From NCBI GenBank assembly GCA_963711255.1, contig CAVQDO010000034.1, positions 10,553-74,552 on the forward strand: 64,000 nt of DNA, in the 5' to 3' direction. Shown piece after piece: positions 5,012-48,434 of the stretch (position 1 is its first letter; each line of letters begins with the position of its first letter). This DNA is from an uncultured Gammaproteobacteria bacterium (GTDB taxonomy: Bacteria > Pseudomonadota > Gammaproteobacteria > SZUA-229). The notes beneath the pieces were generated by a model that saw only the letters and a program-made list of their open reading frames with translations, was not told the origin of the DNA and made no database searches. The position numbers and the translations under genes are program-made.

Positions 5012-5031
5012 TTAGTGGCCGAGTAAAGACT

Positions 5032-5655: not shown

Positions 5656-5674
5656 AAAAAACAGGAAATAAACT

Positions 5675-6553: not shown

Positions 6554-6606
6554 AAGAGCAGTGAAAATATAAAGCAGTTAATTACTAATAATTCACTGTT
6601 TTATTA

Positions 6607-6807: not shown

Positions 6808-6841
6808 GTGTTTTCCTGATTACGATCTTTTTAATTTCTAG

Positions 6842-7600: not shown

Positions 7601-7637
7601 GTTAGAGCTAAATAGACAACTATTAAACGATGCAATT

Positions 7638-8291: not shown

Positions 8292-8506
8292 TACAAAAAC
8301 ACAAATGTACGGCATCAGCTATAAGCTTGCCTTGAATGTCGTTTTACCATTACCATTGGCCGTCGCAGTTGCCCATAACGGTGTTGCAGTCTTACTGTTT
8401 GTTAATGAGCCTGGCAACCCTGGTGCATTATTCGGGCCTGAAAACGAAACAGCGCAGTTAGCATTAAGTAATAACTGGCAATAATAAATAACTGGATAAT
8501 TTCGTA

Positions 8507-9463
8507 ATGAATAGCAAAACCGAAAGCATCGATAAGGTCAGGTCCGAGAAGGCTACCTGGCGTGATTACTATGATTTGTGCAAGCCAAAAGTGGTCATGC
8601 TATTACTGCTTACCTCGATAGTTGGTGTTGTTCTGGCTAGCCCACCGGGTGAGATTTCATTATTTATCCTGGTAATGTCTACCCTGGGTATTGGCCTGGG
8701 TTCGGCTGCTGGCGCCGCAATTAATCAGATCGTTGAGCGGGATAGCGATGCCAGGATGGCCCGCACTGAAAACCGCCCCCTTCCCCAGGGTCGCGTAAGC
8801 CAGCAAAACGCCTTTATTTTCGCCATCATGATGGCGGCAGCATCGGTATTCATTTTAACGGCCTGGATCAATGTGCTTACCGCGGTACTGACTTTTGCCA
8901 GTATGATCGGGTATGCTGTTGTTTATACCATGTATTTGAAGAAAGCCACGCCGCAAAATATTGTTATTGGCGGGCTTGCCGGCGCGACACCACCGTTACT
9001 CGGCTGGACCTCGGTTACCGGCGCGGTAGATGCACACGGTTTGCTGCTGGTACTGATTATTTATACCTGGACGCCGCCACATTTCTGGGCACTGGCGATA
9101 CACCGTCGTGATGATTACGCAAAAGTTAATCTGCCAATGCTGCCTGTGACGCACGGCATTCAATTTACCAAGTATTCAATACTGGGTTATACCATCCTGA
9201 TGTTCATGGTTACCCTGCTGCCCTATCTTGCTTTCATGCGAGGTGAGTTTTACCTGGTATCTGCTGTAATACTAGGTATCTACTTCTTTTATAAAGTCTT
9301 TATGCTGATGTTTAGCAGTCGTAAAAATGCAGCAATTTCCACTTTTGTCTATTCAATAAATTATTTGATGTTGCTGTTTATTGCCATGGTAATCGACCAT
9401 TATTTTGCCGGCACTGTTAGTCAGTTTTTGTGTGAAAACCTACAATATAAATGTTATCCATAA
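8507..9463 (+). CDS. cyoE: protoheme IX farnesyltransferase (heme O synthase)
   Basis: UbiA-family polytopic membrane protein of 318 aa, with the characteristic Asp-rich region and conserved CyoE/CtaB sequence (YWDLCKPKVVML...). In the cox cluster. Confidence 0.92.
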   Translation: MNSKTESIDKVRSEKATWRDYYDLCKPKVVMLLLLTSIVGVVLASPPGEISLFILVMSTLGIGLGSAAGAAINQIVERDSDARMARTENRPLPQGRVSQQNAFIFAIMMAAASVFILTAWINVLTAVLTFASMIGYAVVYTMYLKKATPQNIVIGGLAGATPPLLGWTSVTGAVDAHGLLLVLIIYTWTPPHFWALAIHRRDDYAKVNLPMLPVTHGIQFTKYSILGYTILMFMVTLLPYLAFMRGEFYLVSAVILGIYFFYKVFMLMFSSRKNAAISTFVYSINYLMLLFIAMVIDHYFAGTVSQFLCENLQYKCYP

Positions 9464-9589
9464 TAAGGATTTTCTATCACTTTTATTGCCGGTAACTTGA
9501 TCTAGCTCCATTTCTGCAACTGTGTAATATGTGTATACTGCTTGGATAATAACTATTTAATGAGCCTGCTTTGGCAGGTGTAATTTTCT

Positions 9590-10348
9590 ATGTCTCTAAA
9601 ATCAAGTAGTTTTGTTCTAGGCGCAGCTCTCGCTGCGTTATCAGCAGGTTACCTGCTGTCCGTGGTGCTGCAGGATGCAGTTGATCAAGATTTTGAAGCG
9701 GTCAATGAAAAAGCGCTGGAAGATGCGCGCAAGTATTTCTCGCCGATTCAAGGTTCAATTTTGTCACCAACACGAAAGATTGCGGTGCCTGATCTGACCA
9801 AGGATAACGGTGAAGCTTTTACCCTGGATGATTTAACCGGTAAATGGCATTTGTTGTTTTTTGGTTATACGCATTGCCCGGATATATGCCCGACCACGAT
9901 GGGAACGCTTGCCCAGGCAAAAAAAATATCGAAGGTGAACAATCATATCTTTCCTGACGTCATATTCATCTCGGTCGATCCCGAGCGTGACAAGGTTGAA
10001 TTGCTGGGTGACTATGTCCGCTATTTTGATAAAGACTTTATTGGTGTCACCGGCAGTGAAGATATGATTAAAGCGCTTACACTGCAGGTTAGCGTGGTTT
10101 ATATGAAAATGGCTGAGCAGAAGCCGCAGAAAAAATCAGTAAAACATGCCAAGAAAGATGCCGGGAAAGATAAAGTAGCGAACAAGGACGCAGAAAGCAG
10201 CGGTTACCTTGTTGATCACAGTTCTGCCCTGCTGCTTGTTAATCCTGAAGGTCGCCTGGTAGCTTTTTTAAATCCGCCGCATAGTCCTGACGTTATTATT
10301 GATAGCTTCCAGTCCGTGGTTAATCAAAGCAATATGCCAAGCTTCTAA
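9590..10348 (+). CDS. SCO1/SenC family copper chaperone
   Basis: Signal-anchor followed by a thioredoxin-like domain with the FFGYTHCPDICPTT motif (CxxxC plus a downstream His). It carries an unusual Lys-rich insert (KPQKKSVKHAKKDAGKDKVANKDAE). Confidence 0.85.
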   Translation: MSLKSSSFVLGAALAALSAGYLLSVVLQDAVDQDFEAVNEKALEDARKYFSPIQGSILSPTRKIAVPDLTKDNGEAFTLDDLTGKWHLLFFGYTHCPDICPTTMGTLAQAKKISKVNNHIFPDVIFISVDPERDKVELLGDYVRYFDKDFIGVTGSEDMIKALTLQVSVVYMKMAEQKPQKKSVKHAKKDAGKDKVANKDAESSGYLVDHSSALLLVNPEGRLVAFLNPPHSPDVIIDSFQSVVNQSNMPSF

Positions 10349-10425
10349 GCTCTGTTCTCTAGCCTGTGGTTCAGGTTGCTATTCAGAATGCTCGCCGTTA
10401 CTCAGAAAGAAGACGGCTTAACAAA

Positions 10426-11367
10426 CTAAGGCGCATCGTCAACCACTTCTTCTTTAGCCGCAATCAGGAAATCCTGCTTGTGTATATTCATTACCATTAA
10501 TGTGCTGCTGGCAATGTAAATAGATGAATAGGTACCAATGACAACACCAATGATCAGGGCAAAGGCAAATCCATGAATGATCTCACCACCGAAGTAGAAC
10601 AGCGCAAATAACACCAGCAAGGTGGTTAATGAAGTTACCAGTGTTCTTGCCAGTGTCTGGTTGATTGATATATTTAAAATTTCTTCTGGCGAGGTTTTCC
10701 TGATACTTCTGAATGTTTCGCGAATTCGGTCAAGCACCACTACGGTATCATTCAATGAATAACCGATAACCGCCAGGATGGAAGCCAGAACGGTAAGGTC
10801 AAACTCCAGCTGAAATAAGGAGAATGCACCGATGGTTATGATAACGTCATGTACCAGCGCCAGGATTGCGCCTACGGCTGATTTTAGCTGGAAGCGAAGG
10901 CTGATATAGATAAGGATGCCACCAAGAGCTACCAGCAAGGCAATGCCGCCATCGTCCCTTAATTCATCGCCTACCTGTGGGCCGACGAACTCTACCCGTC
11001 GCATGGTTACTTCCTGCTCAGAGGTGCTTTTTAAGACGGCTAAAATATTGTCACCAATAGTGGCTTTGTTGATATCTTCACGCGGTGCTATGCGAACAAT
11101 AATATCTTTCGAGGAGCCAAAATTCTGCACCTGGGCATCCTTGAATTTTGCAGTGGCCAGAGCGTCTCTTACCTGCTCAAGGTTTACATCGTTCTTGTAG
11201 CCCGCTTCTATTAAATATCCGCCGGTAAAGTCGATGCCGAGGTTTAGGCCTTTAGTAGCGATGCTGCCCAGGGAAATTAAAATTAGCACTAATGAGAAAA
11301 CCATGGCTGGTTTTCGTTTGTTCATGAAATTAATTAATGTCTTGTTGCTTGCGTGTGTTTGAGACAT
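10426..11367 (-). CDS. secF: protein translocase subunit SecF
   Basis: 313 aa with 6 TM helices and a SecF signature; conserved position downstream of secD. Confidence 0.95.
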   Translation of the reverse strand: MSQTHASNKTLINFMNKRKPAMVFSLVLILISLGSIATKGLNLGIDFTGGYLIEAGYKNDVNLEQVRDALATAKFKDAQVQNFGSSKDIIVRIAPREDINKATIGDNILAVLKSTSEQEVTMRRVEFVGPQVGDELRDDGGIALLVALGGILIYISLRFQLKSAVGAILALVHDVIITIGAFSLFQLEFDLTVLASILAVIGYSLNDTVVVLDRIRETFRSIRKTSPEEILNISINQTLARTLVTSLTTLLVLFALFYFGGEIIHGFAFALIIGVVIGTYSSIYIASSTLMVMNIHKQDFLIAAKEEVVDDAP

Positions 11368-36220: not shown

Positions 36221-37069
36221 ATGAAAACTATAAACATAATTATTGCAATAACATTTTTAGCCGTTGGCTTTGTCAGCGCCTACCTGGTTCTAAGTGCTAC
36301 CGCTGATAATAAAGCCGCTGTTGATACAGCCAGTCTGAACGATGATAGCGAAACAGCAATATTTGTTAATCCTTTCTCCACGAAAGCGCCGGAGACAACC
36401 GATAATGCAAGGTTGAACTCGCTCGAGAATGATGTTGCAGATATTATGCAACAGTTACAAAATATCGAGCTGACATTGCAGAATTTAGCGGCTGAAACTG
36501 AAACCGGTTCATCGGCAACACGCCAGTCGAGTTCGCGTAGTAATCGCTTTACTTCAGCTTTGAGCCAGCGTCTCTATAACCTGGATAATTTGATCCGGGG
36601 CGGTATTGATCCATCGATAGCAGAAGATATCGTCCGACGAAAAAATAAAATTGAATTAGAAAGACTGGAGCTGCAGGATCGTGCTCGCAGAGAAGATTAC
36701 CTGGATACCGAGCGCTATTTTGACGAACTTGAAGCAATTAATTCTCAGGATATCAGTCTTAGAGAAGAGCTGGGTGATCAGCAATATGATGAGTATCTTT
36801 TTAACAGTAAACAAAATAATCGTATTAAAATTACATCAGTTATGCTTGGTTCGGTTGCCGAACAGGCTGGCATAGAAGCTGGTGATGTAGTCTTAAGTTA
36901 CGATAGCCAGCGTATGTATACCTGGCAGGAACTAAAAGATGCAACAGCCGAAGGCCAGCTTGGCGAGTACGTATCTATTAGCATGTCCCGAAGTGGTGAG
37001 ATATTCAGTTTTACTGTGCCAAGAGGCCCTCTGGGTGTGCAGTTAGGTGCTACCCGGCTTATTCCCTAG
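36221..37069 (+). CDS. membrane-anchored coiled-coil protein with C-terminal PDZ domain
   Basis: N-terminal TM helix, a long helical region and a C-terminal PDZ-like segment (ITSVMLGSVAEQAGIEAGDVVLSYD...GEYVSISMSRSGEIFSFTV). Confidence 0.6.
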   Translation: MKTINIIIAITFLAVGFVSAYLVLSATADNKAAVDTASLNDDSETAIFVNPFSTKAPETTDNARLNSLENDVADIMQQLQNIELTLQNLAAETETGSSATRQSSSRSNRFTSALSQRLYNLDNLIRGGIDPSIAEDIVRRKNKIELERLELQDRARREDYLDTERYFDELEAINSQDISLREELGDQQYDEYLFNSKQNNRIKITSVMLGSVAEQAGIEAGDVVLSYDSQRMYTWQELKDATAEGQLGEYVSISMSRSGEIFSFTVPRGPLGVQLGATRLIP

Positions 37070-37092: not shown

Positions 37093-37971
37093 ATGACGAT
37101 GAAAAAAGATATATACGTTTTTGAAGTGAGTGAAAGCAGTTTTCAGGAATCTGTTATTCAAAATTCACATACTCTTCCTGTGTTTGTTGAATTTATGGGA
37201 TTCTGGTCCGAGCCATGCATTGTTTTATCAGCCATTATGTCTGATCTGGCTGCGGAGTTTGCCAGTCAGTTTGTTTTTGCAAAACTCGACATTGATGATC
37301 ATGCCGAACTGCGAAAGCAATTCGCTGTTGAAAATATACCGACAATAAAGGTATTTGTTAACGGTGAAGTCGTTGCTACTGAGGAAGGACAGTTAACAGA
37401 AGATGAGTGCCGTGCTTTACTGAAACAATATGGTGTCTATCATGAGTCTGATGAAATGCGTCTCCAGGCCAGAGAGCTGCATCTGTCTGGCGATACCCAG
37501 GCGGCTTTTATACTTTTAACCGAAGCGATTAAAAAAGATCCAAAAAATACCCGTGTCGCCATGGATATGGTGCAGGTTTTTATTGATTCAAAACTGATTG
37601 ATAACGCCAATGGCCTGTTCAGCAAGTTACCGTCAGCTGTCAAGGATAGCCGCATGGGTAAGTCTCTCGCAAGTCAGCTAGCCTTCATTAATCAGGCGGC
37701 TACAACTGATGGTATTACAGCGCTGCAACAGCGCATCAGTGATAATGAAAAAGACTATGACGCGCACTTCGACCTGGCTATATGCCTGCTTGCAGAATAT
37801 GAAACCATGGCGGCGATTGAAGAACTGTTTTATATCCTGGAAAATAAAGCCGATTACAAGGATGGTGCGGCGAAGGAAATGATTATTGTTTTAGTCGGTT
37901 CAATGAAAGAGAAAGAACCTGAGGTAGCACAGAGTATTCAGCAGCGACTTAGCAATATGCTTGCCCAGTAA
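37093..37971 (+). CDS. ybbN: thioredoxin-domain plus TPR co-chaperone YbbN/CnoX family
   Basis: Thioredoxin fold with a degenerate SxxC active site (FWSEPC) and a C-terminal TPR-like domain, the YbbN architecture. Confidence 0.8.
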   Translation: MTMKKDIYVFEVSESSFQESVIQNSHTLPVFVEFMGFWSEPCIVLSAIMSDLAAEFASQFVFAKLDIDDHAELRKQFAVENIPTIKVFVNGEVVATEEGQLTEDECRALLKQYGVYHESDEMRLQARELHLSGDTQAAFILLTEAIKKDPKNTRVAMDMVQVFIDSKLIDNANGLFSKLPSAVKDSRMGKSLASQLAFINQAATTDGITALQQRISDNEKDYDAHFDLAICLLAEYETMAAIEELFYILENKADYKDGAAKEMIIVLVGSMKEKEPEVAQSIQQRLSNMLAQ

Positions 37972-37986
37972 TATTATTCAGGAATA

Positions 37987-38478
37987 TTATTTTTTCCTGG
38001 TTATTATTTTAAGTTCGTATTCATTGTAAGCTTTTTTTGAATTGCCTTTGATAACATTTCTTATCTCTTCCATTGATGTATATGAGCCACTGCCTAGAGG
38101 CTTCTGATCACTGGCAAGTACCCATATAGACTCACTGCCGAAAGGCTCACTGATTATAAAGCGGTAAGCATCATCGTATTCAGGTACGGTAAGAAAGAAA
38201 CCATGCTGGTAAAAGTTACTTGACTGGTTTTCATTGGGCAGTATCTGGCTGATATTATTGTCAGCATCAACATAATACATATAAATATAGGCGTCACTGC
38301 CCAAACTTAATAGAAACTGGATCTCGTCACCATCAACAAATTCCTGTTTGTCGCCAAGATGTGTGGTTAATTCCAGAGGAATGCTTTGCAATGTCTGATG
38401 TCCGCTAATATTGCTGTTCTGGGCTCCACAAGCGCCAAGCATTAGCGCTAATAGGAAATACGAAAAAGGTTTAATCAT
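37987..38478 (-). CDS. DUF4384-domain lipoprotein
   Basis: LGAC lipobox. Central IYMYYVDADNNISQILPN matches the DUF4384 signature (a domain often fused to the C-terminus of bacterial caspase-family proteins). Last gene of the minus-strand caspase module. Confidence 0.6.
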   Translation of the reverse strand: MIKPFSYFLLALMLGACGAQNSNISGHQTLQSIPLELTTHLGDKQEFVDGDEIQFLLSLGSDAYIYMYYVDADNNISQILPNENQSSNFYQHGFFLTVPEYDDAYRFIISEPFGSESIWVLASDQKPLGSGSYTSMEEIRNVIKGNSKKAYNEYELKIITRKK

Positions 38479-38651
38479 TGATGCAATTTATTCATGCGTG
38501 AAGGTGTGTTTGCTTAATAATATTGTGTTAAAGACTGAAACTGTAGTTATAACCGATGAATATAGCATTGATTCTATATTCCTGTTTGCTTGAGTCCAGA
38601 TATTCAAATTTATAGTTTCGGGTTTTTATGCCGGCATTTAGAAAATGCTGA

Positions 38652-39242
38652 TCATTCAGTGTGTAGACCGTGCCGAACTTCGAGTGCCCAGCTTTTGCCT
38701 TCGCCAACTTTGTTGTCACTGCCATCTTTGATGTCTCCCTTGCCGATAAATCCAAAGGATCCAAACAATGTCCATTTCGGGTTTAAGGGTATAAAGCCGG
38801 ATGTGCCGAGGCCCAGGCCAACAAAATTTTGTGTATATGGATCGTTCTTCCAGTCATTGGAAACGACTTTTAAATCTGCAAATAATGATACCTGTGGCCA
38901 GAAATAATAACCAACCAGCAGGTCAAAATCTCTTTGTTTGATTCTAACGTTTGACGTTGCAACACGGCCTGCCAGGGTGAATTTATCAGGCGCATTACTA
39001 TTAAAGTCATATTCACCGCCTTGAAGATTAAGGCCAGTATAAAAATTATCAAGCTGATAAGAAATATTTAGAGCAAACTGGCCGCCCTCGTCGCTTTCGA
39101 AATCACTGCCACCAGATCCGTTATCGCCATTCCAGCCAGCACCTAGTAGTTTTGCACCAAATGTCAGACGCTGGTCTGCACACAGGTTGCTGCTGGTAAA
39201 TATCAATGAAAGTAATACGAAAGATATTGTTTTATACAACAT
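38652..39242 (-). CDS. outer-membrane beta-barrel protein (OmpA-like/opacity family), apparently frameshifted near the 3' end
   Basis: Signal peptide followed by Gly/aromatic-rich amphipathic strands. The predicted C-terminus (..SWALEVRHGLHTE) lacks a terminal aromatic residue. The overlapping frame at 38528-38783 encodes a canonical barrel C-terminus (..GTVYTLNDQHF..YRINAIFIGYNYSF). Confidence 0.55.
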   Translation of the reverse strand: MLYKTISFVLLSLIFTSSNLCADQRLTFGAKLLGAGWNGDNGSGGSDFESDEGGQFALNISYQLDNFYTGLNLQGGEYDFNSNAPDKFTLAGRVATSNVRIKQRDFDLLVGYYFWPQVSLFADLKVVSNDWKNDPYTQNFVGLGLGTSGFIPLNPKWTLFGSFGFIGKGDIKDGSDNKVGEGKSWALEVRHGLHTE

Positions 39243-39254
39243 AATATTATCCTT

Positions 39255-40334
39255 TTACAGTGTTGGAATGGGTACTACTTTTGGCTGTTTTACGGGCTTT
39301 TTAATTACTTTCTCGCTAGCCCCGCTTATTGCCGGGTCAGCGGGTACTACATTAACTTCGACTTTTACTTTCTCGGGTGCTACGCCTTCTACAGCAACAT
39401 CCAGCCTTATAAATATGAACTCGCCCAGTTCGTCACCGGCGCCCTGTAATACACCGCTTTCGGGTACCTGCTCAACATTATTGGCAACAGCGCGTTCTAC
39501 GTTGCCGGAAAGCTGGCTGAGGGTAAACATAGGTTTGTTATTAGTATCCAGTTCGTTAAGTAAAAAATAGGTAAATGGAGAGTGCCCAGAGTTTCTGTAG
39601 TCGTCATCAACAAACTCAAATCCTCCAGCGGCCATTATTTGCACGCTTTTCTTTTTGGAAACTTTTTCAAAATATTTTTCATTATAGTCAGATTCTGAAA
39701 AGCCACGAGTGGCTGTTCTTAGTAAGGAACCACTAAAGCAGGAGTCGGATATTAACAATGTGTGTTTGACGCGAGAGGCAATACTCGATACTTCATCTCT
39801 TATCGTAGAGTTGCGTAAAAAAGTTGTGTGGTCACTACCTTCCGCATCAACCGGTACCCAGAACCCCTTGTTGGTTTCGTCGTCAAGAAAGCCATGGCCG
39901 GCATAATAGATGAGTACATTGTCATTTTTTAAGGATTTTGCGGCCAGTTCTTCCAGGGCGAGCAAAACTTCCCGCCGTGTTGCATTCTCCATCAGGTTAA
40001 CATCGCTAAACCCATATTGCTCGCTCAATAGTTTGGCAACAGCCCGGGCATCGGTAACGGCTGTACTCAATGATTTCCATTTCCCCTTTTCGTCCTGGTA
40101 GTCATTATTGCCAATGATAAGCGCACGATAAACACCGTTGCCAATTATGTTTTCAGATATTGATGGAGTGTTTACGTTTTCAGTTTTTTCGATAGAGATG
40201 CCACGACTGTCAGCAGCAAAACTATTGCTGGCCGTTACAGACAGTGCCAGAAAAAGAGGTATCACAATATTGAAATAGTAACGCAAAATAAATCTTGTAT
40301 TTGCGAATAATTTAAAAAGTGTTTTCTTAAACAT
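39255..40334 (-). CDS. caspase-family (peptidase C14) protein with signal peptide; periplasmic/secreted orthocaspase-like
   Basis: N-terminal signal sequence. C14 core YRALIIGNNDYQ..., with catalytic His in LIYYAGHG and catalytic Cys in LLISDSCFSG. A Pro/Lys-rich C-terminal tail follows. Confidence 0.85.
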   Translation of the reverse strand: MFKKTLFKLFANTRFILRYYFNIVIPLFLALSVTASNSFAADSRGISIEKTENVNTPSISENIIGNGVYRALIIGNNDYQDEKGKWKSLSTAVTDARAVAKLLSEQYGFSDVNLMENATRREVLLALEELAAKSLKNDNVLIYYAGHGFLDDETNKGFWVPVDAEGSDHTTFLRNSTIRDEVSSIASRVKHTLLISDSCFSGSLLRTATRGFSESDYNEKYFEKVSKKKSVQIMAAGGFEFVDDDYRNSGHSPFTYFLLNELDTNNKPMFTLSQLSGNVERAVANNVEQVPESGVLQGAGDELGEFIFIRLDVAVEGVAPEKVKVEVNVVPADPAISGASEKVIKKPVKQPKVVPIPTL

Positions 40335-40336
40335 GG

Positions 40337-41353
40337 TTAATAACCCTTGTCGATAATAAAGCCGCCGGAGGCATAAAACATCCGTTCATTTTTGGTGTTG
40401 CCATATAATATCCATTCATAACGTTTATTATGATGGATATTTGTGCCGTTGGTGGCATTGTCGGTTGTGCTGTCATTTTCGGTTAATTTGTTATCTATAT
40501 CCAGCTTGAATGTTGCGTAGTTATTTTCTGTGGTTTTCTCTTTTAAAACTGTTTTCCTGCCCTGGTTAAAAACCTGTATGCGCATTTTGTAAACGATTGC
40601 GTCTTCAACCTGTGGCCAGCTAATTTTGATTGTGTTTTCAGCCACTAACTCGATGCTGATATTATCAAATGGTTTGGTGGTTTTGCTATCGCCAGAAAAG
40701 AATCCAATGCCAGGCAATTTGCTGGTTTCTGTAAATTGAATGGTTGGGTCATCCTGGTAGCTGGCAATCATAGTCTGATTAGTATTAAAGCTGGTGACAT
40801 TTATGATCATCAGCAGTGCAATAAATATAGTGGCTGTTACCGCAATAGTTGCTGCAAATGGTGAATCAACGACAAATAGCTGTTCGAATAATGAGATCAA
40901 TTTACTTTTTAGTGTCATTGATTCACTGCTTGCATTCATGTTGTCTGTCGGCGCCATGCTACTGTCACTGGCTAGATCGGTTCGCAGAGACTCGGCATGA
41001 CACTGGTAATGCAGAGCGGCTTTCATGGCATCGGTATTATTTTCTATCAATTGTTTGACTGTCGTTATATCTTCCGCGCTTAATCTGCCCTCTATGTACT
41101 GACAAATCATTGCATGCTGTTCTGGTGTAAGCGTTGACTGTTCATTTATAACTGCGGCATTATCATAAAGAGCACGCATGGCGGTAAGCTGCTCCCTGCA
41201 ATCCTGGCAGTTAGCGAGATGATCGAGCAGATCATTATACTCATTGTTCGCCTTAGCTAGATCAGCCGGTGGTATTCTGGCAAACCCGCTCAAACTATTG
41301 TGATCTATATGCTGAGTATTCATTTTATTGTTTTGACTGTTCATGTTTATCAA
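40337..41353 (-). CDS. ZAS-family transmembrane anti-sigma factor
   Basis: N-terminal HxxxCxxC zinc motif (HLANCQDC), a central TM helix (IAVTATIFIALLMIINV) and a ~170 aa periplasmic domain. It is separated by 2 nt from the caspase gene and lies directly downstream of the sigma-like gene. Confidence 0.7.
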   Translation of the reverse strand: MINMNSQNNKMNTQHIDHNSLSGFARIPPADLAKANNEYNDLLDHLANCQDCREQLTAMRALYDNAAVINEQSTLTPEQHAMICQYIEGRLSAEDITTVKQLIENNTDAMKAALHYQCHAESLRTDLASDSSMAPTDNMNASSESMTLKSKLISLFEQLFVVDSPFAATIAVTATIFIALLMIINVTSFNTNQTMIASYQDDPTIQFTETSKLPGIGFFSGDSKTTKPFDNISIELVAENTIKISWPQVEDAIVYKMRIQVFNQGRKTVLKEKTTENNYATFKLDIDNKLTENDSTTDNATNGTNIHHNKRYEWILYGNTKNERMFYASGGFIIDKGY

Positions 41354-41397
41354 GAGACAGTATTTTTGTGTTTTTTTGAAAAAGATAATACATAAAT

Positions 41398-42318
41398 TTA
41401 TTTTAAAAAATTACCAAGTTTTGCCAGTGTTTTACGACGAAAATAATATAGCTGCTGCCGGTTTGTTTGCTCTGCCGGGATGCCCTTTTTAATACTTAGA
41501 TTCATCTTTTTTAAACTGTTGAGTACGATTTCTCCATCCATTTCATTAATAACCAGCGCTTCTAAAACAAACTGCTCAATTGCGTTGAGATTTTTCCAGG
41601 CGCCTGATAATCGTCTGCTATCTTCGCTTACATCAATATCAACGTCGTAACTTGCTGTTTCCGAATCAAGCCGGTTAGCTGAGTCTTCGTCAGTCTGAGA
41701 AAGCGATATGTTTTTATCTGCATTGAGTAAATGCAGTTTATTTCTTATGCTGAGCTGCCTGACAATTTCGCGGCTGATTAACCTGGTTTGTTCTTCGCTC
41801 TGTCCAGTGTCGTGGCTTATCTGCTCAATACTCAATTGTGAGCGTAAACCATAAAATACCGCGATGGCTGTTTTACCCAGGTTCTGTATATAGGCCGGCA
41901 CGTAAACTTTTCGTCCAAACCGCCAGTCTTTCCAGCGTTCGTAAAACGGCAATGAATTAGCAATAACGTAACAGTAATCGAACAGGCTGGCATTATTACT
42001 GGCCTGGTATTTTTTCAAGCGTTTACTACTGGCCAGATCGTCCAGCATCCATGTGTAGCTGCCATTGCCCCACTCACAGAATGGGGCATCTGCCGGCGGA
42101 GACCCAATGGGCTGTTTTAACGTGCATTTGAAGATGCTGCGGTTTTCTTTACAAAAACGTTTGCAGAAGCGGCTGCTTTGATAGTTTATTACCGGTTCAA
42201 TTAATTCATTGACCTTTTTCCTGGCAGATATTTCATTGTCAGCCGCTTTTCGAGCAAGCTCTAGCTGCTCATTATTTCGTTCAGTCTGGCTGAGCGTTGG
42301 CTTGGCTGATGAAGACAA
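41398..42318 (-). CDS. divergent ECF-like sigma-70 family protein with Cys-rich insert and C-terminal extension
   Basis: A region-2.1-like start (LELARKAADNEISARKKVNELIEPVINYQSSRF) is interrupted by a Cys-rich insert (CKRFCKENRSIFKC...FCEW). A region-4-like HTH (LGKTAIAVFYGLRSQLSIEQISHDTGQSEEQTRLISREIVRQL) is followed by a ~110 aa extension. Adjacent to a ZAS anti-sigma gene. Confidence 0.45.
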   Translation of the reverse strand: MSSSAKPTLSQTERNNEQLELARKAADNEISARKKVNELIEPVINYQSSRFCKRFCKENRSIFKCTLKQPIGSPPADAPFCEWGNGSYTWMLDDLASSKRLKKYQASNNASLFDYCYVIANSLPFYERWKDWRFGRKVYVPAYIQNLGKTAIAVFYGLRSQLSIEQISHDTGQSEEQTRLISREIVRQLSIRNKLHLLNADKNISLSQTDEDSANRLDSETASYDVDIDVSEDSRRLSGAWKNLNAIEQFVLEALVINEMDGEIVLNSLKKMNLSIKKGIPAEQTNRQQLYYFRRKTLAKLGNFLK

Positions 42319-42428
42319 TGTAATTCCTTCAGGCAGTGCTTAATCATAAAAAAGCATGACACTGCTTATTGTTTAAGTAAATAATACTGAGTGTAGTGAA
42401 TATTTCAGAAATTATTACTGCGTCCGGC

Positions 42429-44402
42429 CTATCGTGCTTCATATAAAAACCAGCCTTTAACCTGATTGTTACTGAGGCGGATGGCCAGTCCGTAATCGTC
42501 ATAAGCCAGGTATTCGCCTGATGTCATATTGAGTCGCCTGTCTGGAATTCCCAGTGCCTTAAAAGGACGGTCCGCTGAATCACCTATTTTAAGGCCACTG
42601 TTAGCAATGGATTTATCTGCTGTGTTTATTTCTGTTGATATGCCGTGCTGCCAGGCACCGATCAGCTTGCCATTATCCTGTGCGATATATTTTGCGCCAT
42701 CCACCAGGCTTACCTGGTAACGCTCACCATCTATCCATAAATCAGAGTGCTGTTTACCCGGTAGTGCATTATCACTCAAATTATCTCCAAGTCGTTTGCC
42801 GTTTACGGTAGGTGCCTGTTGCAACTGTTGTGTTTTAGCGATCCTGTTTTCGGGCGTTACCTGGTTTAATGACAGTCTGAATAACAGGGTGTTGCCCTGC
42901 TCTTTTGATTGTCGTGCAAGATCCATCCAGACTTTTTTTGCTTCTTCCTGTTGATTGATCGAGCGGTATAACTCGGCGAGGTTATAGTAGGCGCTATAGC
43001 GTAAAACATTGTCTGCCAGTGGTGATACGGTCGACTTCTCCTTTATCTTTTCAAGCAGTGAGGCTAGTGTTTCTATGGACTTTTTAGTGTTTCCTTCGAT
43101 GGCTGTGGTTAATGCCAGTAACATTTCAAGCGAACTGTCTTGACCAAACCGGGCTTCAAATTTGGGCTGGTACTGGCCCTGCAATACCCCGCGTGCACGG
43201 TAAGTGTTTTTCGCTAGCAGGTGTGCAGAGGCCAGTAATATATACGTTTGCCGATATTCTGGTGCCAGCCGGATCGCTTTTTCAAAATGACTAATGCTGC
43301 GAGTGAGCAGTTGTTTTTTGCGCTTGTTTAAGTTTGAGATCAGTTTTTCGTTATCGCCGCGTTTATTGTCCAGTAACACAGTTTCATTAATTTCAGCAGG
43401 CTGCGCATCAAGTATCATCGGGTAATAAAAATTAAATAACGGTGGCTTGCCATCACTGGTGATAATGGTATTCAGTTGTTTGTGTATGCGTTGCGCCTCG
43501 GCGAAATAAGTTAGTCCTATCGCACTAATAATTGCCCTGCCCGGGTAGTCGCGTCCATAACTGGTGAAATAATCTCTTGCCTGCTGGTAATCACCGGCAA
43601 CGAAAGACTGTACCCCGAGGTCGTATAACATTGATTGTGTAGCAACAGTATTGAGTTGTGCCTGCGTCCTTAACGCACGTGACTGCGCCTGTTTACAGGC
43701 ACTAACATTGCTATTTTGCATCTGTTTCTCTGCACAGGGCTGCTGCCAGATATTTTCGACCCATAAGGTAAAGAAATCTTTTTCAGCGACAACCTGGTAG
43801 GGATCAAAGCCGACACTGGCCATTAACACCAGGCCGTCATGATCGGCCTGCGCTTCTTTTTCTTCGAGTTGAGATAGCAGCTCGTCATTAAGGTCCAGGC
43901 CGGCCATCATTTTTTTCTGTGATTCTGCCGGATGTGAACCGATCATGCGAAAGAAACGCTGATGCCATAAATCATCTGCGCGCTGGTGTGCCAGCTCGTG
44001 AGCCAGGACAAAGGCAAGCAAATGTTCACCACGTTGCTGACCAAAGGAAAAACTGGTTTCTATTGCCTGACGGCTTAACAGGATGTTGCCATCAGCCAGC
44101 GAGGCTGCCCAGGCACCGGCTTCAGATTCGACAACATACAGCGCCGGTTCGATTCGTGATTGATCCCAGGCTCGTAATAACACGGAAAATATTTCCCGCG
44201 AACGGATTACATTCGGCTCATTTTCATCAATAGTGTATTTTTTCCAGTAGGTTATTGACTGTTTCACGTCTGCTGGCGGAATGAGTGAATCAGCCACTGA
44301 ATCGGCTAAAACAGGTGATGTTCCTGTAAATAGTATAAGCAGTATTAACAAAAGGTGATTTACAGGTTTGTTCATGGTGTTAGCAATGGTATTTATTTTC
44401 AT
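42429..44402 (-). CDS. secreted M48-family zinc metalloprotease with TPR repeats
   Basis: Signal peptide (MNKPVNHLLLILLILFTGTSPVLA), HExxH zinc motif (FVLAHELAHQ) and a C-terminal half rich in TPR-like helical repeats. Start at 44402 or 44375 is uncertain; the track gives 44420. Confidence 0.7.
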   Translation of the reverse strand: MKINTIANTMNKPVNHLLLILLILFTGTSPVLADSVADSLIPPADVKQSITYWKKYTIDENEPNVIRSREIFSVLLRAWDQSRIEPALYVVESEAGAWAASLADGNILLSRQAIETSFSFGQQRGEHLLAFVLAHELAHQRADDLWHQRFFRMIGSHPAESQKKMMAGLDLNDELLSQLEEKEAQADHDGLVLMASVGFDPYQVVAEKDFFTLWVENIWQQPCAEKQMQNSNVSACKQAQSRALRTQAQLNTVATQSMLYDLGVQSFVAGDYQQARDYFTSYGRDYPGRAIISAIGLTYFAEAQRIHKQLNTIITSDGKPPLFNFYYPMILDAQPAEINETVLLDNKRGDNEKLISNLNKRKKQLLTRSISHFEKAIRLAPEYRQTYILLASAHLLAKNTYRARGVLQGQYQPKFEARFGQDSSLEMLLALTTAIEGNTKKSIETLASLLEKIKEKSTVSPLADNVLRYSAYYNLAELYRSINQQEEAKKVWMDLARQSKEQGNTLLFRLSLNQVTPENRIAKTQQLQQAPTVNGKRLGDNLSDNALPGKQHSDLWIDGERYQVSLVDGAKYIAQDNGKLIGAWQHGISTEINTADKSIANSGLKIGDSADRPFKALGIPDRRLNMTSGEYLAYDDYGLAIRLSNNQVKGWFLYEAR

Positions 44403-44556
44403 GTATCGGAAGAGACACAAATAATCTTCATATTTGAATATTAAATTAATGGATTATTTTTCAAATTTTTAATTTATGCCTGTCTCTTTAGTATTGAAGA
44501 TTAAAAACCGGTAGTTATGTGATTTTAAGCATATGCCAGAATAATGGAGAAACAAG

Positions 44557-45982
44557 ATGAATATCGACAATTTTTTAATGCCACATATGAAAACTGCGGC
44601 GGCAAACTCAAAACAGGTACTCAGTGTGGTGTTGCTGAGCACTATGCTGGTTGCCTGCGGTGATGATGACAATAACACAGTTAATTCGAGTGTGCCTTCC
44701 CTTGACCTGGCGATCCCACAAAGTTTAACCGGTGGCCAGGCAACGATTGCAGCTAAATCAGAGTTGTTGTCTGCAGCTACTTCCGTCAATGCTTCATTGA
44801 AACTGGCAAAAGCTGGAACCGGGGAACCCTGTGCCTACCTCGGCAATGAAGACGATGATGACCCGTTCAGGAATGGCTATGAAACCAGCAAGTTTATGAT
44901 TTCAATAATGGCGTCATGGACTTGCATTGCAGACTTGATAATCGATGTTGCTACCTTTGTGCCTCACAATGGTGCGATTTTTGAAACTGAAAATGATAAT
45001 AACTCTGATGACTTTGAGGCTGATGAACCGACACATTATAGTGTTACTGATGAATCGGCTAGCCAGGTTACGGTTCGTCTTTATTATAACTACAGCCGTT
45101 CCCAGCCACCGATTACTGGTGAAAAAGCTCAGTTTTATATTTCCTGGAATGAAGCTGTCAATGGTGATATTGAAGGCAGAATGATTATTGATAGACTGGC
45201 TGTTGAATGGGATGATCATGATGTCGATGACCCGAACCATGATGCGCATGGATTTCAACTTTACTGCAGCAACAAAAACAGCCGATATGTTCTTACAGTT
45301 TGATGAGAATAATGCATGGGCAGATGGTTTTAGAATACAGCTGCAGAAGGATCTTGAAGCAAATCCATTGCTCAAGGTATTTGAGGCACGCGGTTTAATT
45401 AATATGAAAGCGCAATTTGTTCCAGTAGCGAATATAACGGAAGTTCCCGATGTGCAGTTATTTACCGTATCCGACGGTCTTGGTAATGGCGCATCCATTG
45501 CTGAATTTCAGGATATGTCCCTGCCCCTGGTACTGAATGCCGACCTGGATAACCACCTGGGTGATTATATTTTCACTAAAAAAGATGCGTATTATTTCGA
45601 GCATGATATGGACTGGGAATATATCAATAAAACCGTACTTTCATCTGAGTATCGTGGCAGTCGCACCACCCCGGAAACTGGCGGTAGCTGGATACCTTTT
45701 GATCCTTCGCTGGACCTGGTTGTAGGTGCGTTGTTACTGGATGTTGATTATTTTACTGGCACGCAATGTGCGGATATTGGCGACGACTGTAATGATTTGC
45801 TTAATGCTGTCTTTAACTTTACCGGCGGCTTTGCCGGTCAGGAAGAGAACCAGGGAACTAACCCACTCGACTGGCGGTCAACAGAACTGGATAATGCGGA
45901 GTATTTAACATCGGTTTATCCAAATGGTGTTGACTGGACGGGTGCTTTCGAGCATAGCTTTACTCCGCTAGCCAATCCATAA
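44557..45982 (+). pseudogene. Asp-rich lipoprotein gene split into two overlapping ORFs (44557-45303 and 45188-45982) by an apparent frameshift near an A5 run at ~45270
   Basis: The first ORF has a signal peptide and LVACG lipobox. The second frame is open from 45188 and continues with protein-like sequence to 45982. The two overlap by 116 nt. The true shift must lie near 45240-45300, where a CAACAAAAACAG run occurs. Confidence 0.45.
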
Positions 45983-47442: not shown

Positions 47443-47570
47443 TTAGTTTTTAATATTACCTTTCTAAAAAAATGCTGGCACTCACAGGTTTACCGGAATA
47501 ACATATGGCAGGTGCAGCGGTAATGTTTTTAGCCTGCACACTGGTAAAAATTAAACCTTGGAGTAAATGT

Positions 47571-48434
47571 ATGAGAGTTAAATATTTCACCTCCGCTGCA
47601 GCAGCGGTTGCGTTCGGTACATGCGCAATGGTGGCACAGGCGAATAATGGCAATATGAATCCTGACGGTAACTGGATGCCAAAGCAGCCAGAAAATCGTT
47701 ACTGGCAGGCACCAGACTGGTCTAATTATAATGTTTCACCCGGCAACAGACAGTCACGACAAACCCATACTCCACAGTCCGGGCCTGGGTATAACAATGC
47801 ATATCGCCCTGCTCCACCCGCTATGCAGCAGCCGCCAATGCAACGGTCTCAAGGACAGAGGCCACCCATGCAACAGTCTCAAGGACAAAGGCCACCCATG
47901 AAACAGTCACAAGGACAAAGGCCACCAATGCAACAGTCTCAAGGACAAAGGCCACCAATGCAACGGTCTCAAGGACAAAGGCCACCAATGCAAAGGCCAG
48001 CGCAGGCACCTGGCGCAGAGCGTCGTCCAGAGTTTAATCGTCCTGATTCGGCTGCAATGGCACCACCAGCAGCGAACATCAATCGTATGCCACCACCGCC
48101 TATGGGACCATACAACAGCGGCATGAGGGGCCCTGATAATGGCGCTTCTGCTTTTAATGTGCCTGGTTATAACCGTTACAGAAATAATCGCCGGGATAAC
48201 AATAAATTCTGGGGACGCAGCGGCCCGAGCAAGTGGATGAACCCGAATAAAATGAACATGGAACGGGGCTGGGACGATATGATTAATGCACCAAGTCGGA
48301 TGGGCGAAATGCCCGGCGGCTGGACAGCACCTGAAGTCAGCGTGCCTAATCCAGTGGATATGGGTGATCAGATTCAGGAAAACCTTGAAGACCTGCCAGA
48401 GCAGGTACGCGATATGGATGTTGGCGATAACTAG
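47571..48434 (+). CDS. secreted Pro/Gln-rich repeat protein ((P)PMQ(Q/R)SQGQRP decapeptide repeats)
   Basis: ATG at 47571 with GGAG 9 nt upstream. Signal peptide (AAAVAFGTCAMVAQA). About seven tandem copies of a 10-aa unit, then Pro/Gly/Asn/Met-rich low-complexity sequence and an acidic C-terminus. Confidence 0.65.
   Translation: MRVKYFTSAAAAVAFGTCAMVAQANNGNMNPDGNWMPKQPENRYWQAPDWSNYNVSPGNRQSRQTHTPQSGPGYNNAYRPAPPAMQQPPMQRSQGQRPPMQQSQGQRPPMKQSQGQRPPMQQSQGQRPPMQRSQGQRPPMQRPAQAPGAERRPEFNRPDSAAMAPPAANINRMPPPPMGPYNSGMRGPDNGASAFNVPGYNRYRNNRRDNNKFWGRSGPSKWMNPNKMNMERGWDDMINAPSRMGEMPGGWTAPEVSVPNPVDMGDQIQENLEDLPEQVRDMDVGDN
47841..47990 (+). repeat. five near-identical in-frame 30-bp tandem repeats (CAACRGTCTCAAGGACARAGGCCACCMATG)
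   Basis: Counted directly; copies differ at 1-3 positions (R/Q/K codon). Confidence 0.9.

Follow-up and report, generated by a model that had tools for sequence, protein, structure and literature searches.

A conserved, mostly gammaproteobacterial gene cluster with two exported proteases, most likely a self-contained sigma/anti-sigma envelope signalling module

The question raised by this locus is whether two exported proteases, an outer-membrane barrel and a DUF4384 protein are encoded beside a sigma/anti-sigma pair as parts of one regulated envelope system. The window, meaning the whole 64,000-nucleotide stretch analysed, covers positions 10,553-74,552 (forward strand) of contig CAVQDO010000034.1 in assembly GCA_963711255.1, from an uncultured Gammaproteobacteria bacterium (SZUA-229). 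Six consecutive minus-strand ORFs between 37987 and 44402 encode an M48-TPR protease, a sigma-like protein, an anti-sigma factor, a C14 caspase homologue, an outer-membrane protein (OMP) and a DUF4384 protein, as a first-pass annotation made from the sequence had listed them at about these coordinates. The same gene order recurs across species-level genomes, and each neighbour gene was found in 51-60 of the 55-64 loci with sufficient flanking sequence, a co-conservation of the six genes which far exceeds chance. The cluster is kept in at least 75 bacterial species, mostly uncultured and mostly gammaproteobacterial, and no study of the cluster as such was apparent in the literature. Because the six genes are real and strongly co-conserved, the core idea of the annotation holds, and its proposal that two exported proteases of the envelope are co-regulated as one module by a dedicated sigma/anti-sigma pair is supported by this co-conservation and by a module-specific motif of fixed spacer. 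The cluster is most likely a self-contained, autoregulated sigma/anti-sigma envelope signalling module, and a probability of roughly 0.6 is given to the reading that it combines a switch with a self-contained regulon.

The exported C14 protease (39255-40334, minus strand) is metacaspase/orthocaspase-like and matched Peptidase_C14 with 86 bits (E 3.6e-24). A signal peptide is followed by an invariant SRGI motif, and the protein ends in a conserved C-terminal PxPT[LF] tail. The catalytic dyad, read as intact from the start, consists of His147 (YYAGHG) and Cys199 (DSCFSG), both invariant across 22 homologues, and the closest relatives of known structure are yeast metacaspase-1, Arabidopsis metacaspase-4 and MALT1. 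In three genomes (loci L036, L054 and L064) the C14 protein and the OMP barrel are fused as one ORF, with loss of the caspase C-terminal tail and of the barrel's signal peptide, and these fusions are a physical link of the caspase homologue with the outer-membrane barrel. The barrel gene of the window (38528-39242, minus strand) encodes an outer-membrane beta-barrel, as proposed, of the OMP_b-brl type, but its frame is broken. Its 715 nt are not a multiple of three; the ORF as it stands ends at 38652 (196 aa) and the +1 frame runs on to 38528, with one extra base near 38675-38677 that is absent from four close homologues. The frame-repaired product is 237 aa long, like its close homologues, and PF13505 matches over its full length (33.3 bits, cutoff 28.7). 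The exported DUF4384 protein (37987-38478, minus strand) matched PF14326 with 67.7 bits (E 9e-19), and 51 of the 55 loci whose flanks were long enough have its gene downstream. The annotation had called it a lipoprotein, and in the window's clade it is predicted to be one, with the lipobox LGAC; a lipobox was found in 18 of 56 homologues, those nearest to the window among them, and most of the others have an ordinary signal-peptide-like N-terminus.

The second exported protease (42429-44402, minus strand) is an M48-like zinc metalloprotease: a signal peptide precedes HELAH (residues 135-139) and E183xxAD, TPR repeats come next, and about 120 aa at the C-terminus form a further conserved domain. 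HExxH and the downstream ExxAD are invariant in 25 homologues, as the first reading of HELAH implied, although the Pfam Peptidase_M48 score of the window protein (16.6 bits) falls below the cutoff of 20.3 and the family assignment is supported at family level, with weak matches in 16 of the 25. Alignment with E. coli BepA using hhalign covered the catalytic core with a probability of 64.7% (E 6e-5), and the architecture deduced from the sequence resembles that of BepA. At the distant locus L081 the sigma-like, zf-HC2 and M48+TPR genes occur together and a C14 gene is absent.

The six genes are not the full extent of the module, which becomes seven genes in two divergent transcription units with three promoter-like sites when the lipoprotein gene LP477 (44557-45982, plus strand) is counted. 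LP477 encodes an LVAC lipobox and is conserved beside the M48 gene: homologues of about 455-500 aa were matched in 49 loci overall and divergently adjoin the M48 gene in 36 of the 47 with enough flank. A strict lipobox pattern is present in 38 of 47 homologues, most others having a similar motif by eye, and Pfam and PDB searches with LP477 returned no match to any known domain. In the window a single extra base near 45237-45238 breaks the gene into two ORFs, 44557-45303 and 45188-45982; tblastn placed the shift of reading frame between 45237 and 45251, and an intact homologue of 477 aa lies at 6286-7719 of locus L003. Single-base frameshifts thus affect two of the seven window genes, LP477 and the barrel gene, so the window copy of the module may be inactive or the assembly may contain errors. 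The divergent gene, both frameshifts and the cytoplasmic location of the sigma-like protein had been overlooked in the first-pass annotation.

The anti-sigma factor (40337-41344, minus strand) is a single-pass inner-membrane protein of the ZAS type. Its cytoplasmic helical domain contains His15 and His45-x3-Cys49-x2-Cys52; the HLANCQDC segment noted originally corresponds to the invariant HxxxCxxC, and His15 is nearly invariant. The zf-HC2 model matched 33 of 37 family members and stayed under the Pfam threshold for the window protein, so that the expected HMM support exists at family level only. In the predicted model a transmembrane helix at approximately 166-186 is followed by a periplasmic FN3-like beta-sandwich (194-336), a conserved domain with many invariant residues and motifs of its own (YQD, PGIGFF and RYEW). 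Among the matches listed by a fold search, which were filled by FN3 hits, no anti-sigma-domain match to the N-terminal part appeared.

The 306-aa protein encoded by 41398-42318 (minus strand) had been taken for a divergent ECF-like sigma factor, and a lack of sigma-70 r2/r4 HMM matches had been named as one outcome that would undo the co-regulated-module reading. Taken literally the test failed: no Sigma70 HMM matched the ORF, Sigma70 models gave no match to 37 core-family members even at E<=1, and hhalign against E. coli RpoE found nothing. When the predicted structure was searched against the PDB using Foldseek, all 50 of the 50 matches listed were sigma factors (SigB, SigD, sigma-32, sigma-S and FliA), with alignments spanning approximately 290-375 columns, and the best full-length alignment was to group-3 sigma factors. 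The predicted structure has a pTM of 0.43 and global TM-scores to sigma factors of about 0.2-0.25, and the assignment of the sigma-2 domain rests on this model. The layout comprises a sigma-2-like domain with an insert, a middle HTH, an acidic disordered linker (201-227) and a sigma-4-like domain. The N-terminal domain is helical, with conserved aromatic and basic residues (FYERWKDWRF) which we infer to sit at the position of sigma regions 2.3-2.4, and its insert carries Cys52, Cys56, Cys65 and Cys81, which are invariant among homologues. Remote relatives found with the family profile match Sigma70_r4 (29.3 bits against a cutoff of 24.1 for P0313), their middle domain matches GerE/LuxR-type HTH models, and zf-HC2 genes come after them. 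On the basis of the predicted fold, the Sigma70_r4-bearing relatives, the ZAS anti-sigma partner and the promoter motif, the protein is most likely a very divergent sigma-70-family factor with a metal-type four-cysteine insert. The ECF part of the original assignment was not retained, as a length of 306 aa, three domains including an extra HTH and the invariant insert do not describe a textbook ECF factor. The protein has no signal sequence and is cytoplasmic, and with the anti-sigma factor in the inner membrane the earlier statement that every product is exported was incorrect.

The bipartite motif TTCAAA-N16-GTCT[CA] occurs three times in the 64-kb window, where 0.22 matches would be expected, and all three are located within the module. 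P_div (TTCAAATTTTTAATTTATGCCTGTCTC, 44460-44486, plus strand) lies upstream of the divergent lipoprotein gene and is an exact TTCAAA-N16-GTCTC; P_M48 (TTCAAATATGAAGATTATTTGTGTCTC, 44412-44438, minus strand) lies upstream of the M48-TPR and sigma genes; and P_asig (TTCAAAAAAACACAAAAATACTGTCTC, 41354-41380, minus strand) lies within the 44 nt that separate the sigma gene from the anti-sigma gene. The same three positions are occupied in 32-37 related loci each (P_div in 37, on the same strand, P_M48 in 33 and P_asig in 32, window included), the spacer in every case being 16 nt. The longer form of the motif is tttTTCAAAT-N-GTCTCTT, with TTCAAA and GTCT always 16 nt apart, and a scan of 1.17 Mb gave 106 matches at this spacing, while spacers of 13-15 and 17-20 nt gave 0-2 each. 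Of the related-locus matches, 100 of 103 fall in the interval that contains the three module sites, from the divergent lipoprotein gene to the start of the anti-sigma gene. From its position P_M48 would bring positive autoregulation, while P_asig would drive antisigma-C14-OMP-DUF4384. The distance from GTCTC to the start codon in the window is 9 to about 70 nt; at P_asig the GTCTC ends 9 nt ahead of the ATG at 41344, so this transcript would be leaderless or nearly so. The TTG at 44420 chosen by the ORF finder lies inside P_M48, and the real M48 start is therefore placed at 44402 or at the next ATG, 44375. A consensus scan also found a weak sigma-70-type match, CTGAAA-16-TATTAT (42381-42408, minus strand), in the 110 nt between the M48 and sigma genes, which is a candidate basal promoter only.

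The missing sigma HMM signal in the core family and the GerE/LuxR-type matches of the remote relatives could also be explained if the 306-aa protein were an ordinary two-HTH DNA-binding activator acting on TTCAAA and GTCTC half-sites, with the housekeeping sigma factor carrying out transcription. This explanation is improbable: every full-length Foldseek alignment among the matches listed is to a sigma factor, the partner protein is of the zf-HC2 anti-sigma type, and the helical N-terminal domain carries FYERWKDWRF at the presumed 2.3-2.4 position. The motif argues against an activator as well, since it sits at promoter position, its spacing is as rigid as in ECF-type promoters, and no convincing TATAAT-type element was found beside the three window sites.

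If the protein is a sigma factor, it would be kept at the inner membrane in the resting state through the anti-sigma factor, whose cytoplasmic zinc-finger domain would hold it, and once freed would guide RNA polymerase to the three module promoters. Transcription from P_M48 would supply the M48-TPR protease and the sigma factor itself (positive feedback), P_asig the anti-sigma factor, caspase homologue, barrel and DUF4384 protein (negative feedback plus output), and P_div the divergent lipoprotein. The caspase homologue's place of action would be the periplasm, where the small outer-membrane barrel would anchor it. Proteolytic cleavage of the anti-sigma factor is the probable trigger of the module, and control by proteolysis is established for the membrane-bound zinc-finger anti-sigma factors RsiW and RslA. 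The likeliest trigger would be a cut in the periplasmic FN3-like domain by a co-encoded exported protease, M48-TPR or caspase, although activation by the module's own proteases is suggested here only tentatively. M48-TPR is the better candidate for this cleavage, as it is still linked to the sigma/anti-sigma pair in the distant caspase-less branch. No site-2 protease was found among the module genes, and a housekeeping intramembrane protease would complete the release. Alternatively, a cytoplasmic thiol, redox or metal signal could release the sigma factor if the anti-sigma zinc finger, as in RsrA or ChrR, or the sigma factor's own four-cysteine site were oxidised or lost its metal, the two proteases, barrel, DUF4384 protein and lipoprotein being outputs only. 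The invariance of both cysteine motifs would fit such a signal, and every protease gene lies downstream of module promoters, as expected of outputs. We regard it as unlikely, because the conserved periplasmic anti-sigma domain argues for an extracytoplasmic input, and because the precedent of RsiW and RslA and the persisting linkage of the M48-TPR gene point to proteolysis. As for physiology, the best guess is that the module would monitor or remodel the envelope or the outer membrane.

A caspase homologue beside a sigma factor also brings to mind an anti-phage or programmed-cell-death system, in which the caspase homologue would kill or arrest the cell and the sigma factor would mount a secondary response, compare type III-E Craspase and III-B PCaspase. 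A caspase-fold protease, a sigma factor and DUF4384 (in some Csx30 C-terminal domains) do occur together in type III-E, PCaspase cuts a presumed sigma factor, and a BrxR-type gene adjoins the module on one contig. Such a role is very unlikely here, as export signals are present on the caspase homologue, M48 protease, DUF4384 protein, barrel and lipoprotein and no cytoplasmic sensor is encoded. PADLOC matched one of the seven module proteins, to a generic caspase model only, no sigma homologue was found on plasmids, and neither cas genes nor large Cas7-11-like ORFs are present near the module in the window. The module flanks in the window's clade are syntenic housekeeping genes (DEAD-box helicase, PDZ protein and lipase).

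When the envelope module is compared with known systems, a prokaryotic C14 gene and a sigma gene share one predicted operon in the metacaspase-sigma-70 operons of Myxococcus, Anaeromyxobacter, Haliangium, Sorangium, Ralstonia and Fibrobacter (PMC3501461). Those were noted as domain co-occurrence only, with recognisable sigma factors, and the present gene set, promoter motif and mostly gammaproteobacterial distribution are not described there. In the type III-E Craspase set (Csx29 TPR-CHAT protease, Csx30, Csx31 and RpoE/CASP-sigma) and the related III-B PCaspase/PCc-sigma and CalpL/CalpT/CalpS systems, a sigma factor is freed, as proposed here too, when its inhibitor is cut by a protease of caspase fold or another type. 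These systems are cytoplasmic, RNA- or nucleotide-triggered and encoded beside CRISPR-Cas, whereas here all products but the sigma factor are exported or membrane-bound. In M. xanthus, the ECF sigma factor DdvS is paired with the anti-sigma factor DdvA, which carries a caspase-like TPR + CHAT module outside the cytoplasm; a part for this protease in anti-sigma inactivation is a proposal only (PMC6061681). This pair, like the type III-E set with Csx29, Csx30 and RpoE, is a precedent for the envelope reading: in M. xanthus as here, a sigma/anti-sigma pair is linked with TPR repeats and with an extracytoplasmic cysteine protease of caspase fold. In DdvA, however, TPR and CHAT are within the anti-sigma polypeptide, while here the barrel-linked C14 protease (not CHAT) is exported separately and the TPR repeats are on a separate M48 metalloprotease; DdvS is also a regular ECF factor controlling a CRISPR-Cas operon. 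The anti-sigma factor shares with RsiW and RslA the N-terminal H-x3-C-x2-C with an upstream His, one transmembrane helix, an extracytoplasmic C-terminal domain and a gene directly downstream of its sigma gene, differing in its FN3-like sandwich with its own motifs and in a partner that is not a recognisable ECF factor. Compared with E. coli sigma-E/RseA/DegS-RseP, the sigma factor here has 306 aa, an extra HTH and a Cys4 insert and is undetected by sigma HMMs, the anti-sigma factor is of the zinc-finger type, unlike RseA, and caspase-fold and M48 proteases are encoded instead of a DegS-type serine protease. The likeness of M48-TPR to BepA, an M48-TPR protease under sigma-E control, is confined to the catalytic core and domain order, and the regulon, as far as visible, is the module itself. 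Common to both, on the reading given here, are a cytoplasmic alternative sigma factor with an autoregulated gene, an anti-sigma factor that crosses the inner membrane once and has a periplasmic domain, an ECF-like promoter geometry (short -35, rigid spacer of about 16 nt, GTC-containing -10), a regulon with a periplasmic protease in which TPR repeats come after the M48 part, and an input and output that would both concern outer-membrane proteins.

Six consecutive ORFs on the minus strand, between 37987 and 44420, encode an M48-TPR protease (42429–44402), a sigma-like protein of 306 aa (41398–42318), an anti-sigma factor (40337–41344), a C14 caspase homologue (39255–40334), an outer membrane barrel (38528–39242) and a DUF4384 protein (37987–38478), in the order described by the first-pass annotation. 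One genome per species was scanned for related loci, which gave 75 loci, mostly from uncultured Gammaproteobacteria (Chromatiales, Thiohalomonadales, Acidiferrobacteraceae, Thioalkalispiraceae, Ectothiorhodospiraceae, Agarilytica and Pseudomonadales) with a few from bins labelled Nitrospirota or Desulfobacterota. The six window proteins were searched against all ORFs of these loci and only loci with enough flanking sequence were counted. The M48-TPR gene was directly upstream of the sigma gene in 57 of 64 loci and the anti-sigma gene directly downstream in 60 of 64, and the C14, barrel and DUF4384 genes were present in 52/58, 51/58 and 51/55 loci, respectively. The six genes are therefore co-conserved, each neighbour occurring in 51–60 of 55–64 loci. 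Since the flanking genes differ among distant carriers and their synteny is confined to the six closest loci, the module behaves as a unit. The sigma-like family has 516 database matches; all of the 120 listed are unnamed proteins with no Pfam domain, and their named sources are uncultured Gammaproteobacteria or Pseudomonadales. The carriers so far are metagenome-assembled genomes of uncultured organisms and an Olavius symbiont scaffold.

The ORFs neighbouring the module encode RapA, a DEAD-box helicase, a PDZ protein, a thioredoxin-TPR protein, a lipase and others. The plus-strand gene of the membrane-anchored PDZ protein (36221–37069) was considered as a module member on account of the conserved C-terminal tail of the caspase homologue, but is probably not one, since no more than the six closest loci have it in synteny. 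It is separated from the module by the thioredoxin-TPR gene (37093–37971), which has a homologue in none of the fetched loci, the six closest included. At 47505–48434 on the plus strand is the gene of a secreted Pro/Gln-rich protein with tandem QSQGQRPPM-type repeats. It lies beside genes for a class-3 lipase and a small membrane protein and has a conserved counterpart in synteny in the closest relatives (3800–4531 in the related locus L003).

The composition of the module varies between loci. Five loci (L041, L060, L066, L069 and L072) lack the barrel gene, and most of these keep the genes for the sigma-like protein, anti-sigma factor, M48-TPR protease, C14 protein and DUF4384 protein; L041 is also without a C14 gene and L069 without a DUF4384 gene. 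The caspase domain is fused to an FGE-sulfatase domain in L060 and to Lcl_C in L069, and DUF4384 is found at the end of a 726–770 aa protein in L041, L060, L066 and L072. Tandem duplications were also seen, with two C14 genes in locus L019 (8831–11349) and two barrel genes in locus L037 (10850–12551). In locus L075, from the Olavius algarvensis Gamma 3 endosymbiont, only residues 5–149 of the sigma-like protein were matched (10001–10435) and no anti-sigma, C14, barrel or DUF4384 gene follows; the M48-TPR and lipoprotein genes are present, and the module looks disrupted in this symbiont.

The 306-aa protein had been labelled an ECF-like sigma factor, with HMMs of sigma-70 regions 2 and 4 proposed as the check. 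These models matched neither the window protein (Pfam, NCBIfam) nor, with matches admitted up to E≤1, any of 37 family members (Pfam). The family profile retrieved no sigma factor from the PDB sequences, an hhalign comparison of the family with E. coli RpoE was empty, and a jackhmmer search seeded with RpoE found nothing over all fetched loci. An AlphaFold model obtained from 37 sequences had a pLDDT of 78 and contained a helical N-terminal domain, a small helical domain at residues 142–191, a disordered acidic linker at 201–227 and a C-terminal four-helix domain. When this predicted structure was compared with the PDB using Foldseek, all 50 listed matches were sigma factors, with approximately 290–375 aligned columns and a best E value of 1e-4 at low global TM-scores, and the best full-length matches were group-3 sigma factors. 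Searched in full with HMMER, 1.84 billion representative proteins yielded only 140 relatives, of which the remote ones were reached by the family profile at E values of 1e-18 to 1e-4. Sigma70_r4 was recognised by Pfam in one of these remote proteins, P0313, with 29.3 bits against a cutoff of 24.1, and more weakly in four others (P0301, P0283, P0286 and P0319); zf-HC2 genes were found after the genes of remote relatives. Most remote relatives are on short contigs without usable gene context and only locus L081 was informative. There (1–8796) a distant sigma-like relative lies beside a zf-HC2 protein and an M48+TPR protease that scores above the Pfam cutoff, and instead of a caspase gene the locus has genes for a TPR-FGE-sulfatase protein, a FadL-type outer membrane protein and a PEGA-domain Ser/Thr kinase. 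In modules of this kind the portion that senses or carries out the response seems to be interchangeable.

Because the sequence-level sigma searches were all empty, the assignment is drawn from the fold, the remote relatives, the zinc-finger partner and the promoter, and on these grounds we conclude that the 306-aa protein is probably a member of the sigma-70 family. An activator outside the sigma family, with two HTH domains, is a less likely alternative; the empty searches count in its favour, and the sigma-factor folds retrieved by Foldseek and the Sigma70_r4 matches of the remote relatives speak for the sigma-70 assignment. ECF (group 4) sigma factors consist of sigma-2 and sigma-4 domains only, without sigma-3, and are approximately 170–220 aa long. 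In the model of the window protein an extra four-helix HTH domain (142–191) lies between the sigma-2-like and sigma-4-like domains, and this domain and the length of 306 aa show that it is not a textbook ECF factor; together with a cysteine-rich insert they remove the ECF-like label as far as domains and size are concerned. The gene context is of the ECF type, with the anti-sigma gene directly downstream (60/64 loci) and a conserved motif upstream of the unit that holds the sigma gene. Within the family alignment Cys52, Cys56, Cys65 and Cys81 are invariant and fall in the insert at approximately 50–81, and an aromatic and basic stretch, NSLPFYERWKDWRFG, is also invariant and by its position may be equivalent to sigma regions 2.3–2.4.

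The partner of the sigma-like protein carries a zinc-finger signature, in which His45-x3-Cys49-x2-Cys52 is invariant and His15 nearly so across 37 anti-sigma sequences. The window protein itself scored 15.3 bits with zf-HC2 (PF13490; E 0.023), below the cutoff of 22.2. At E≤0.1 the domain was matched in 33 of 37 family members, the lowest E value being 4.5e-7. Precomputed PF13490 matches were present in 14 of 85 database clusters. The model of this protein has a helical N-terminal domain, a single transmembrane helix at approximately 166–186 and a beta-sandwich at 194–336, and the periplasmic part contains invariant motifs of its own (YQD, PGIGFF and RYEW). A cytoplasmic thiol or metal signal, acting through the zinc finger and the four-cysteine site of the sigma-like protein, is a less likely alternative to a periplasmic trigger; the former would draw on the conserved zinc-finger residues and the four invariant cysteines, the latter on the beta-sandwich with its conserved motifs.

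When the closest loci were aligned over the sequence preceding the M48 gene, two conserved blocks emerged. The 64-kb window contains three occurrences of TTCAAA-N(15-18)-GTCTC, where shuffled sequence would be expected to give 0.22, and all three are inside the module. The first promoter-like site (P_M48, 44412–44438, minus strand) is just upstream of the M48 gene and was found in 33 loci including the window, the second (P_div, 44460–44486, plus strand) faces the opposite way toward 44557 and was found in 37 loci including the window, and the third (P_asig, 41354–41380, minus strand) lies in the 44 nt that separate the sigma gene from the anti-sigma gene and was found in 32 loci including the window. 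The spacer is 16 nt in every locus at all three positions. Over 1.17 Mb of fetched sequence TTCAAA-N16-GTCT[CA] gave 106 matches, compared to 0–2 for each spacer of 13–15 and 17–20 nt, and 100 of the 103 matches in related loci fall between the divergent lipoprotein gene and the start of the anti-sigma gene. The consensus of the motif is tttTTCAAATa-N-GTCTctT. In promoters of the ECF type the -35 element is short, the spacer is rigid and the -10 element contains GTC, and TTCAAA-N16-GTCT[CA] is likely to be the cognate bipartite promoter recognised by the 306-aa protein. This motif is the strongest single argument that the module has a dedicated sigma factor. As far as the data reach, the predicted regulon would contain the M48-sigma unit, giving positive feedback, the unit of anti-sigma, caspase, barrel and DUF4384 genes, and one divergent gene. 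Scans for sigma-70 consensus promoters and terminators gave nothing decisive on the ends of the operons. At both minus-strand sites an ATG (41344 and 44402) follows GTCTC after exactly 9 nt, so that the transcripts would have little or no leader, unless translation begins at the next in-frame ATG (41314 for the anti-sigma factor and 44375 for the M48 protease).

The plus-strand site points to 44557, the start of a seventh gene (44557–45982), where two overlapping ORFs (44557–45303 and 45188–45982) jointly match one intact lipoprotein of 477 aa in L003. A homologue of this lipoprotein was matched in 49 loci and divergently adjoins the M48 gene in 36 of the 47 loci with enough flank. Nearly all homologues have a lipobox; the protein has no Pfam match and no PDB sequence relative. 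The reading frame is broken by one extra C in GAACCATG, near 45237–45238. A similar break was found in the barrel gene. The annotated span of 38528–39242 does not hold as one gene, since its 715 nt are not divisible by three; a stop ends the ORF at 38652, and a typical barrel C-terminus continues in the +1 frame to 38528. Compared with four close homologues there is one base more, in GAAGTTCGGC near 38675–38677. No Pfam match was obtained with the 196-aa ORF in its present form, and the repaired protein of 237 aa matches OMP_b-brl (PF13505) over residues 9–235 with 33.3 bits against a cutoff of 28.7.

Neither frameshift is in a long homopolymer. In exact look-ups the repaired barrel and lipoprotein proteins were absent from the protein collection, and the truncated forms occurred only on the same 79,675-bp contig. 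The only other suspicious pair of overlapping ORFs of at least 150 aa, at 6842–7600 and 7575–8291, was rejected as a third split gene since the two ORFs encode SURF1 and SCO1. Because both single-base frameshifts detected in the 64-kb window fall within one 8-kb module, the evidence leans towards real mutations at both positions; the module could be decaying in this genome, or the assembly could be in error.

The M48-TPR window protein scored 16.6 bits against the Peptidase_M48 cutoff of 20.3, and the model gave a weak match in 16 of 25 homologues. The catalytic residues His135, Glu136 and His139 of HExxH and Glu183, Ala186 and Asp187 of ExxAD are invariant in the homologues. Comparison of the catalytic core with E. 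coli BepA using hhalign gave a probability of 64.7% over 97 columns. NCBIfam returned no match of the BepA type, and of 97 PDB matches at E≤1 the 60 listed contained no BepA chain, whether a single sequence or the family profile was used. The protein shares with BepA the order of the domains, protease followed by TPR, but not orthologue-level similarity, and it has an additional C-terminal domain of approximately 120 aa. In locus L002, from a close relative, the M48-TPR gene (7845–9857) is in three ORF pieces of the same frame, which implies two in-frame stop codons.

The C14 protein matched Peptidase_C14 (PF00656) with 86.2 bits against a cutoff of 21.4; a CHAT match was below threshold. The caspase dyad is intact, as had been proposed, with His147 and Cys199 invariant in all 22 aligned sequences. 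In these sequences the signal peptide is followed directly by an invariant SRGI motif, and the protein ends in a conserved PxPT[LF] tail; these are possibly an autoprocessing site and a docking tail, respectively. The nearest solved relatives are metacaspases and MALT1, which suggests that cleavage would take place after Arg or Lys. In three loci (L036, L054 and L064) the caspase homologue and the barrel are fused in one ORF, and the caspase tail and the barrel signal peptide are missing at the junction. These fusions are good evidence that the two proteins function jointly at the outer membrane. The DUF4384 protein matched PF14326 with 67.7 bits against a cutoff of 27. Its description as a lipoprotein applies to the closest relatives of the window, which have both DUF4384 and a lipobox, and does not extend to the family, where a lipobox is found in only 18 of 56 homologues and most others have an N-terminus like an ordinary signal peptide.

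The presence of a caspase homologue also raises a defence or cell-death system as an explanation, and PADLOC does see a caspase here, but only through its generic model. All products but the sigma factor are exported, the genes around the module are housekeeping genes, and no homologue of the sigma factor was found on plasmids. Taken together these observations disfavour a role in defence or cell death, and the PADLOC result with the lack of a plasmid homologue led to its rejection as the main explanation. The preferred reading is a trans-envelope switch together with its regulon. In this switch the zinc-finger domain of the anti-sigma factor would tether the sigma factor to the membrane until a periplasmic event strips the FN3-like domain; the freed sigma factor would then switch on transcription of its own gene and of those encoding the envelope proteins. 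What was computed directly is the set of parts, how they are inherited together, the gene fusions and the common promoter motif, and we put the probability of a switch plus regulon at roughly 0.6. The six-gene description of the first-pass annotation thus stands in part, the gene order being retained and the barrel span and ECF label revised, and its interpretation as a co-regulated module is partly supported.

That the switch is triggered by a protease is proposed tentatively. The M48-TPR protease is the more likely candidate, because a distant branch lacking the caspase gene still has it beside the sigma/anti-sigma pair, and the caspase-barrel-DUF4384 set may act as a sensor or as an effector. 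We regard as rather unlikely the fullest form of the model, in which the sigma family, not detected by current models, would be an unrecognised branch of the sigma-70 family with three domains and a four-cysteine site, and the whole regulon would be a periplasmic proteolytic device in which an outer-membrane-tethered caspase, possibly with the M48-TPR protease, destroys the anti-sigma factor from outside the cytoplasm. If the caspase homologue were such a signal-activated destroyer of an anti-sigma factor, it would be the first caspase-family site-1 protease of a trans-envelope sigma pathway.

Both the counting and the classification of sigma factors depend on HMMs for regions 2 and 4, and a conserved family that these models miss, with a clear cognate promoter and a zinc-finger partner, suggests that such censuses overlook some members. 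The sigma factor, anti-sigma factor and promoter could also serve as a ready-made orthogonal set. To our knowledge most bacterial caspase homologues have no known substrate or location; an exported caspase tied to a barrel, in a seven-gene unit with a predicted on-switch, offers a tractable entry point.

The logic of the module is like that of the sigma-E/RseA envelope pathway, which includes the sigma-E-regulated protease BepA, and like that of membrane-bound zinc-finger (ZAS) anti-sigma factors. The closest parallel is DdvS/DdvA of M. xanthus, where the anti-sigma factor carries periplasmic TPR and CHAT modules (PMC6061681). Type III-E CRISPR systems contain the same trio of caspase-fold protease, DUF4384 and sigma factor but in the cytoplasm, and the linkage of DUF4384 to a caspase-fold protease and a sigma factor hints at a common recognition role for the domain. 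The Craspase neighbourhood of Cas7-11, a CRISPR locus and the TPR-CHAT protease Csx29 was not found at this locus, where the adjoining genes are those of RapA, the DEAD-box helicase and the others named and the protease is C14. Control of a sigma factor by proteolysis is also seen in PCaspase and CalpL, and operons of metacaspases with sigma factors were noted in 2012 (PMC3501461). A literature search found no paper on this gene set, sigma family or motif, and in this module a known envelope-type logic is built around a sigma family that current models miss.
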